Source of the DNA: Escherichia coli
GTDB taxonomy: Bacteria > Pseudomonadota > Gammaproteobacteria > Enterobacterales > Enterobacteriaceae
Assembly (NCBI RefSeq): GCF_030384885.1
Contig: NZ_CP128613.1
Strand: one strand, 5' to 3'
DNA length: 64,000 nucleotides
Position 1 is the stretch's first letter. Each line of letters begins with the position of its first letter. The translations under genes were made by a program, and so were the position numbers. The notes beneath the pieces were generated by a model. The model worked only from the letters and a program-made list of their open reading frames with translations, did not search any database and was not told where the DNA came from. Below, in pieces: positions 44,858 to 46,540 of this stretch.

Positions 44858-45678
44858 CTACCAGATAAGAGGTTGGGTCCCTTTCGGTGGGTTTCTTTCT
44901 TTTGCAAGCAAAACTGTTACGGTTACCGGAACACAACGAAGCTTTCCTCTACGTCCGGTGGGGGGATGCAGTGTCAGTCTGGCCAGGCGCAATTCCTGTG
45001 TCACTGTTCTGACTAGCTGCCCCCGCCCATCTGGTATAGCGAATTCAACCAGTTGCTGCGGTGTAATCTCCATGATTCTTTCGTGCAACAACCTATGATC
45101 CCGTTTTCCATGGATATTCAGCGTGGCTCTGTTATTAAATTTCATTCTGACAAGCCAGTCAGCTTTTATTCCGGGAGTCTGTTCTGCGTGTTCAAACAGA
45201 TCATAAAAATCGCCTTCGCGCTCAGAAATTGACAATACATGGGTAGCAGGGCATTGGCGGGCCAGTTCTGTTGCTTTATTATATCCTTCAACCCAACGCC
45301 AGGTTTCTTTTTCACTGACATGTTTTTATGAAGTAAATCATTGCAGATTTCTTATCGGGTATTTTTACTGGTCTTTAATTCATCCCTGAACCACTGATAG
45401 TCATCATAAACACCAAGGCAAACACCTGACTCACTGATGACGAGTTGAGGATGAAGAAATAAGTTTCTTTCATCTTTATATTTTTTAGGACCAACTCCCT
45501 GTTTTTCATTCAGACCAGAATAATTAAGTTCAATTGTATCCTGTAAAACTAAAACTCTTTTAAACTGCTGAGCTCTTTCAATGATGTTTTCTTTGTGAGG
45601 AGCCATGATTTTATTAGGCTGTGTCCCGTAATAGTTTGAGCTATAGTAACGGTCTGTTTCCACAACATATTGAACCAT
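44858..45678 (-). pseudogene. IS4-family (IS50/Tn5-like) transposase remnant, frameshifted and truncated
   Basis: Two ORF pieces resemble Tn5 transposase core regions (..VLVLQDTIEL.. ; ..SEREGD..NPPKGTQPLIW..); N-terminus cut by the adjacent IS5-family element. Confidence 0.5.
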
Positions 45679-46540
45679 AGCTCGCTACGACCTCCCCGAT
45701 GAAGCATGGGCCATCATCAAGCCCTTGTTGCCCCCTGAACCTGCCACACGACGGGCCGGGCGCCCATGTGCAGAGCATCGTAAAATCATCAACGGCATGT
45801 TCTGGGTATTGTGTTCCGGCGCACCATGGCGCGATTTACCCGAACGATATGGGCCATGGAAAACCGTTTATAACCGCTTTAACAGGTAGTCAAAGTCAGG
45901 CGTGATTAACATCATTTTCAACAGATTGCTTTCACTACTTGATGCGAACGGCTTTGTTGACTGGTCTGCCACAGCGCTGGATGGCAGTAATATCCGGGCA
46001 CTAAAATGCGCCGCCGGAGCTCAAAAAAAATTCCGATATCGACGGAGATAATGGGCTGGGTCGCTCTCGAGGCGGTTTGGGCACCAAAATCCATCTGGCA
46101 ACAGACGGAAGCGGGCTCCCGTTAAATATCGTGCTAAGCCCCGGGCAGTCTCATGAAGCCAGTTCGCGCAACGACTTCTGGACGGCATTGGCGTTCATCG
46201 TCAGAACGGTTGCATGAAACGCCGTGGTCATGTTGTGCTGGCCGACAAAGCGTACTCGGGACACACATTGCGCAACGAGCTGAAAAATAAAGGCATAAAG
46301 GCAGTCATCCCCCGAAAATCAAATGAAAAAATGGCATCGGATGGACGAGCACGACTTGATCGCGATGCGTATCGCAATCGCAACGTCGTTGAACGGTGCT
46401 TTGGTCGCCTGAAAGAATACCGCCGCATCGCTACGCGTTACGACAAAACGGCGAGAAATTATCTGGCGATGGTGAAACTGGGCTGCATCCGACTCTTTTA
46501 TCAACGGTTGCGTAATTAAGGGACACAGCCTAGTGTTATG
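45679..46540 (+). mobile_element. IS5-family element with disrupted transposase
   Basis: Transposase-like frames (..GMFWVLCSGAPWRDLPERYGPWKTVYNRFNR*..; ..RSRGGLGTKIHLATDGSGLPLN..; ..ADKAYSG..NVVERCFGRLKEYRRIATRYDK..) across three registers; in-frame TAG where TGG is expected; A8 slippery run at about 46020. Confidence 0.6.

Follow-up and report, generated by a model that had tools for sequence, protein, structure and literature searches.

The locus lies between hchA and a porin gene, in a 64,000-nucleotide stretch of Escherichia coli DNA that was analysed whole (the window) and matches the chromosome of E. coli 2013C-4282 (NZ_CP027579.1) at 100% identity. The gene order around it is hprRS-hchA-island-porin-drpB-yedJ-dcm-vsr. 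From hchA to the porin gene, the RefSeq annotation gives a 'transposase' pseudogene, three 'hypothetical proteins', one further 'hypothetical protein' and an 'IS5 family transposase (frameshifted; internal stop)'. The porin is of the yedS type, called ompC in RefSeq, and its ORF is intact in the window and a pseudogene in the K-12-type strain C600. A 4.87-kb mosaic island (41665-46530) occupies the hchA-porin spacer, replacing 41 bp of native sequence. Its parts and right-hand neighbors are listed below.

41663-42165, plus strand: IS3 stump of ~503 bp with the left inverted repeat (TGATCTTACCC...), orfA and the start of orfB, forming the island's left edge; 94% identical to IS3.
42166-42602, no strand: island-specific 437 bp, with full-length megablast matches in 14 genomes only.
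42603-44380, plus strand: cargo, a divergent second copy of the ilvN-uhpA spacer, which varies among strains; 74-91% identical (four aligned pieces) to E. coli KE47.
42806/42827-44203, plus strand: orphan 458/465-aa ORF in the cargo (PGAP start 42827).
44362-44380, plus strand: first 19 nt of uhpA, abutting the IS4 repeat; homology stops at 44380, and KE47 continues into uhpA.
Starting at 44380: outer terminal repeat of the IS4-family remnant, ACATACCCTTACCCACAAG, from alignment to the inverted-repeat pair of a relative.
44380-45616, minus strand: Tn5/IS50-like IS4-family remnant with one terminal repeat and codons 63-471, from tblastn and alignment.
45352-4, 44858-60 and 44730-2, minus strand: in-frame stops of the IS4-family remnant, from tblastn mapping.
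45615-45616, no strand: TA dinucleotide left of the IS5-family element, belonging to the IS4 sequence ...ATTTTATTA.
45617-46530, plus strand: complete ISSfl7-like IS5-family (IS427-group) element of 914 bp, from its inverted repeats, a full-length ISSfl7 match and alignment with copies elsewhere.
45617-45632: left inverted repeat (IRL) of that element, from inverted-repeat search and alignment.
45677-45679, plus strand: lost start codon, ATA; ATG in the aligned ISSfl7, O157:H7 and RM9387 copies.
45887-45889, plus strand: amber TAG in place of Trp70 (TGG), from alignment and translations.
46023-46030, plus strand: A8 run at the position of the family's -1 frameshift heptamer, from alignment and translations.
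46156-46157, plus strand: 1-nt deletion (AAA to AA; CATGAAAG to CATGAAG), the second frame change, at alignment columns 541-547.
46515-46530: right inverted repeat (IRR), from inverted-repeat search and alignment.
46531-46573, no strand: native chromosome, TA followed by GTGTTATG, with a hairpin (AACACGCCGAGGCGTGTT) just downstream of the porin stop, from alignment to strains ES7, C600 and ChlosBP-23-1.
46574-47797, minus strand: porin CDS.

The locus is ordinary mobile-element debris, with two dead insertion sequences (ISs) side by side, and represents no new kind of system. A sequence-only reading of this DNA had described layered IS decay involving two separate families, IS5 and IS4/Tn5-like, and both families are indeed present and decayed; its coordinates, its description of the elements as nested and the meaning it gave to the A-run did not survive. 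A single intact element, which that reading also denied, was ruled out, the segments being unrelated transposase families on opposite strands.

The boundaries of the IS5-family element were fixed by its copies elsewhere. The stretch 45660-46545 was searched against 5426 complete E. coli genomes, and longer stretches were then aligned. Copies at unrelated loci matched from the first base of the query, and parted from the window exactly outside TA^GGCTGTGTCCC...GGGACACAGCC^TA (^ marks a boundary); the consensus over all copies was TA^GGCTGTGTCCC(G/T)TAAT...ATTAAGGGA(C/G)ACAGCC^TA, divergent beyond. The terminal inverted repeat measures 18 nt at 94% identity, with the TA included in the count. 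A 5'-truncated element had been considered, as an ORF seemed to begin at the IS4 boundary with no ATG, and was ruled out, since the copies at other loci place the IRL 60 bp further left.

End to end, the window copy aligned with ISSfl7, copies of which (917 bp, on Shigella and EIEC plasmids, named 'IS5-like element ISSfl7 family transposase' by PGAP) showed ~90% identity over 100% of the element. The intact ISSfl7 protein, whose gene is 91% identical in DNA sequence, matched NCBIfam transpos_IS5_3 (5.7e-95), PF13340 (DUF4096, 9.6e-30) and PF01609 (DDE_Tnp_1, 2.7e-22). Published members of the IS427 group are 832-865 bp long with inverted repeats of 13-21 bp; their direct repeats measure 2 bp, and their two ORFs overlap and contain a frameshift motif (PMC3281130). 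The size, short inverted repeats, 2-bp flank and two overlapping ORFs of the window element fit the published description of the group. The window element and ISSfl7 share their length class (914 versus ~917 bp), terminal repeats (GGCTGTGTCCC...), TA flanks, DUF4096 and DDE domains and the orfA/orfB overlap at the A-run, with ~90% nucleotide identity throughout. They differ in that the window element is ~10% diverged, forming a separate sublineage with copies adjacent to a TrlF-family gene in O157:H7 and RM9387, that the slippery site of its lineage is 1 nt shorter, placing orfB in +1, and that the window copy itself carries ATA for ATG, TAG for Trp70 and an additional 1-nt deletion. Chance similarity is of no concern, given the whole-length ~90% match to ISSfl7 and, for the IS4-family remnant, a tblastn E value of 9e-125.

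The amber codon at a conserved Trp position and the need for two frame changes, both proposed from the sequence alone, were confirmed in the alignments. The Trp70 position is TGG in ISSfl7 and in the O157:H7 copy, and TAG in the same-locus copies of two other aligned strains as well as in the RM9387 copy, which lies at another locus. The ATA and the A8 run are likewise common to the same-locus copies of the two other aligned strains. Between strains, same-locus copies differ by ~1%. The deletion at 46156-46157 was seen in the window strain only, and is absent from 6/6 other aligned copies.

The A8 run had been taken for a slippery run that changes frame. The frame change is real, but the run is not a random one: it occupies the programmed-frameshift site of the family, in the wrong register for -1 frameshifting. 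In ISSfl7, orfA reads CAA AAA AAC, which contains the heptamer A AAA AAC of the X XXY YYZ type, and orfB lies in -1. The window and O157 lineage has one base fewer at this site than ISSfl7, and its orfB lies in +1; the CDS spans given by PGAP are 845 nt (3n-1) for ISSfl7 versus 844 nt (3n+1) for the O157/window type. The site reads A6C in O157 and RM9387, and A8 followed by T, through two substitutions, in the window lineage. The IS427-group trait of -1 programmed frameshifting between two ORFs is thus missing from the window copy, with its A8 run, orfB in +1 and other lesions. Judged from these lesions, the window copy is a dead derivative, in which family descent holds and function is lost.

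The closest relatives of the window element (96% identity) adjoin the TrlF-family gene in O157:H7 4276 and RM9387. The lineage at 96-99% identity has one copy per genome, and true ISSfl7 has 2-5 copies per record among the records listed. The sole copy with open ORFs is that of O157:H7 4276, where an IS3-family element abuts the damaged IRL, and as a transposon the lineage seems to have died out. The flank of these copies marks a second chromosomal site of the sublineage, beside a TrlF-family ATPase gene. The TAG of RM9387 versus the TGG of O157:H7 at Trp70 could be due to independent mutation, reversion, gene conversion or mobilisation of a defective copy.

We considered whether the frame change at the A-run might be a working recoding signal, through programmed frameshifting or transcriptional slippage, leaving the element partly expressible. 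Relatives are labelled 'programmed frameshift' by PGAP, ISSfl7 has the canonical A AAA AAC -1 heptamer at the same spot, and long A-runs are prone to slippage; however, orfB is in +1 rather than -1 in the window lineage, the window copy has no start codon and carries the amber at Trp70 and a further 1-nt deletion, the lineage is single-copy in each genome, and the one copy with open ORFs has a damaged IRL abutted by an IS3-family element. A working signal in the window element is therefore extremely improbable. That the sublineage as a whole is a recoding variant, using +1 frameshifting or A-run slippage, and not simply dead, is highly improbable; if it were, the amber common to two loci could reflect a defective copy mobilised in trans. 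No element at the locus is able to transpose or to produce transposase.

The Tn5-like remnant on the opposite strand, abutting the IS5-family element as the sequence-only reading had it, was characterized using the 471-aa transposase of an intact relative as the tblastn query. Three segments in three frames were recovered (64-73% identity, E = 9e-125), mapping aa 53/63-471 of the relative onto 45651-44391 of the window. True IS4 homology starts at aa 63, since it is the antisense strand of the IS5-family end that encodes the residues ahead of it. The remnant contains two frameshifts and three stops, and its first 62 codons and other repeat are absent. The start at 44858 previously assigned to the feature is merely one of its internal stop codons, and its true span is 44380-45616.

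The relative, from strain PapRG-04-4, is an element of ~1492 bp that has ACATACCCTTACCCACAA and its complement at its ends, with a 471-aa transposase (WP_072301575.1) containing Tnp_DNA_bind (PF14706), DDE_Tnp_1 (PF01609) and Dimer_Tnp_Tn5 (PF02281) domains and matching NCBIfam transpos_IS4_3 (1.5e-103). The remnant, covering aa 63-471, lacks the DNA-binding domain (aa 3-60). The two share the terminal repeat ACATACCCTTACCCACAAG, and the alignment of the remnant with aa 63-471 of this IS50/Tn5-like element, which has the DNA-binding and dimerisation domains of Tn5, corresponds to 64-73% amino acid and ~74% nucleotide identity; megablast likewise found 'IS4 family transposase' genes in other E. 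coli at 74% identity. The repeat also appears to resemble the Tn5 outside end, CTGACTCTTATACACAAGT. The window remnant differs in being a distinct lineage, with one end gone and riddled with stops and frameshifts: of the two terminal inverted repeats that, with a 9-bp target duplication, typify Tn5/IS50-like members of the IS4 family, only that at 44380 is present, and the other end is deleted. Plasmids of E. fergusonii and Salmonella carry its closest kin, fragments at 95% identity, and no intact copy of this IS4 lineage was found in the searches made.

Two RefSeq 'hypothetical proteins' in this region look, from their reading frames, like artefacts. WP_039020690.1 (45352-45678, minus strand) is a chimera that starts in the antisense left end of the IS5-family element and runs into IS4 codons 63 to ~150. 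WP_000633686.1 (44362-44748, plus strand) starts at the relocated uhpA ATG (MITVAL...), and continues antisense through the IS4 remnant.

The sequence-only reading had the IS5-family element inserted into the IS4 remnant. This holds for its left junction, which falls on a TA in codon 62/63 of the IS4 transposase gene. E. fergusonii plasmids carry the same IS4 lineage uninterrupted across this point (...GATTTTATTA^GCAGAGAC...), and the plasmid fragment of E. fergusonii and Salmonella (95%) runs ...CATGATTTTATTA^GCAGAGACTTTATCG... on to the N-terminus and left repeat. It does not hold on the right, where the flank is native and the 62 missing codons and left repeat do not follow. The right flank (TAGTGTTATG...) is native DNA that normally follows the porin gene: the window continues past the IRR with TAGTGTTATGTTTTACAGTAACACGCCGAGGCGTGTTGGCTGATTAGAA, which also stands at this place in the island-free genomes of ES7, C600 and ChlosBP-23-1. 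In island-free genomes a 41-bp sequence, CCAATAAAAAAGCCTGAGTTCGATGAGGGACGAACTCAGGC, precedes the right-flank sequence, and is absent from the window. The element thus has IS4 sequence on one side and native spacer on the other, instead of a host element on both sides.

These junctions bear on how the element arrived. Simple nesting, in which the IS5-family element entered a resident IS4 remnant and has IS4 sequence on both sides, would account for the left junction in the IS4 transposase gene at TA, the usual IS427-group target. It is very unlikely, because the right flank (TAGTGTTATGTTTTACAGTAACACGCC...) is the porin-downstream sequence of genomes with an empty site, the IRR and the porin stop codon are only 43 bp apart, and the N-terminal 62 codons and left repeat of the IS4 element are nowhere in the locus. 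With the right flank native and these parts of the IS4 element absent, a second event, either deletion or recombination, is needed.

The TA dinucleotides on the two sides do not settle the matter. TA flanks the window element and every other copy examined on both sides, and this invariance makes it uninformative as a target-site duplication; alignment to empty sites showed that the two flanks of the window element were not formerly contiguous. TA on both sides would be compatible with a 2-bp duplication of one TA, and hence with a single ordinary insertion at a pre-existing TA junction between a truncated IS4 element and native DNA, with no IS-mediated deletion. Such an insertion would have had to land by coincidence, to the base pair, on a deletion junction formed earlier; the IS-free junction ...GATTTTATTAGTGTTATG... 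was seen in no genome, and the IS5-family element or a derivative is present in 14/14 island genomes. We regard a single insertion of this kind as unlikely. The junctions expected of a precursor (native left flank with IRL, and IRR with the IS4 continuation) were probed by two synthetic junction queries, which gave no spanning match among the 5426 complete E. coli genomes.

The island was delimited by comparison with genomes in which the site is empty, which align to 41114-41664 and again from 46523/46531 onward. On the left, empty-site spacer homology ends at 41664, at the edge of the IS3 stump. An IS3 stump near 41662 had been pointed out before, and was confirmed with a start at 41663; it is 94% identical to 'IS3-like element IS3 family transposase' copies over query positions 23-526, and PGAP annotates it as a frameshifted transposase with its C-terminus missing. 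The 437-bp segment that follows (42166-42602) had no megablast match among E. coli genomes without the island, the other genomes matching only from ~42592 onward, and the 100-aa ORF within it (42238-42540) had no Pfam, NCBIfam or PADLOC match.

The orphan ORF of the cargo belongs to a family confined to E. coli, with members 42-99% identical. It had no Pfam, NCBIfam, PADLOC or PDB sequence match, and its AlphaFold model (21 homologues) had a mean pLDDT of 52.9, too poor for a fold search. Against plasmids, the island cargo matched only short IS4 fragments and a mislabelled 4.9-Mb 'plasmid' that is the KE47 chromosome.

The island occurs in 14/5426 complete E. coli genomes, and the site is undisturbed in 4712/5426. 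The junctions are the same in 14/14 island genomes, which points to one ancestral island and not to repeated hits. The suggestion of an insertion hotspot accordingly finds little to sustain it, with the site empty in 4712 of the 5426 genomes and every island bounded identically. The description of the scars as long-lived is reasonable, considering that same-locus copies are ~1% apart and have undergone further independent decay.

Comparison of 46531-46573 with the empty site L009:6948-6990 showed that the island removed a hairpin and T-run (GCCTGAGTTCG...CGAACTCAGGC, then TTTTTTATTGG on the porin strand), which looks, from its sequence, like the intrinsic terminator of the porin gene. Only the weaker hairpin AACACGCCGAGGCGTGTT remains, and porin transcripts may therefore read into the IS element.

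Taken together, the locus is very probably inert debris at the right edge of the mosaic island, for which we infer the following order of events and deletion mechanism. A Tn5-like IS4-family element would first have inserted into uhpA codon 7, in some donor context. This insertion predates the arrival of the block, because the first 19 nt of uhpA are cut by the IS4 terminal repeat, and the cargo block appears to have been copied from another chromosomal locus after it. An ISSfl7-like IS427-group element would then have been joined to the TA inside the IS4 transposase gene. The block was presumably placed between the IS3 left end and the native TA 38 bp downstream of the porin stop, with replacement of the 41 bp of native spacer, including the hairpin and the T-run after it.

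Hybrid flanks, IS4 on the left and native on the right, are the outcome that would be expected of an IS-adjacent deletion. Either intramolecular replicative transposition with a TA as target or recombination involving two IS5-family copies could have produced the deletion, which would have removed the N-terminal end of the IS4 element. IS1248, a member of the IS427 group, formed cointegrates, indicating replicative transposition (PMC3281130). The replicative route may by analogy apply to the window element, another member of the same group. Point-mutation decay of all three elements would have followed: the IS5-family element would have lost its start codon, acquired the amber at Trp70, moved orfB off the -1 register and, in the window strain, lost one base, and the IS4 element would have acquired its two frameshifts and three stops.

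Well-known IS biology covers everything at the locus. IS-adjacent deletions and mosaic IS-bounded islands of E. coli and Shigella have one original and one new IS flank, as here, and the likeness extends to the cargo from another locus (the ilvN-uhpA spacer) and to the IS1 and microhomology deletions in sister strains. There is no qualitative difference from known mosaic islands, but the particular combination and location are rare (14/5426). The main value of the analysis lies in annotation hygiene, with the elements named and their boundaries fixed. The locus is also a clean worked example of an IS-bounded block with relocated ilvN-uhpA spacer DNA that subsequently decays, and the island, at its frequency among complete genomes, may be usable as a lineage marker.

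Sister strains show continuing decay. In 3/14 island genomes, including MFDS1022581 and N96, 948 bp corresponding to 44694-45641 of the window are deleted between TATAG microhomologies. The deletion takes with it most of the IS4 remnant and the IS5-family IRL, and came later and independently. Strain 2017.17.01CC has kept only the IS5-family element, with an IS1A in its left end (~45654) and a deletion that runs as far as hchA and takes in the 5' end of that gene. The same strain has another IS1A beyond the porin gene.
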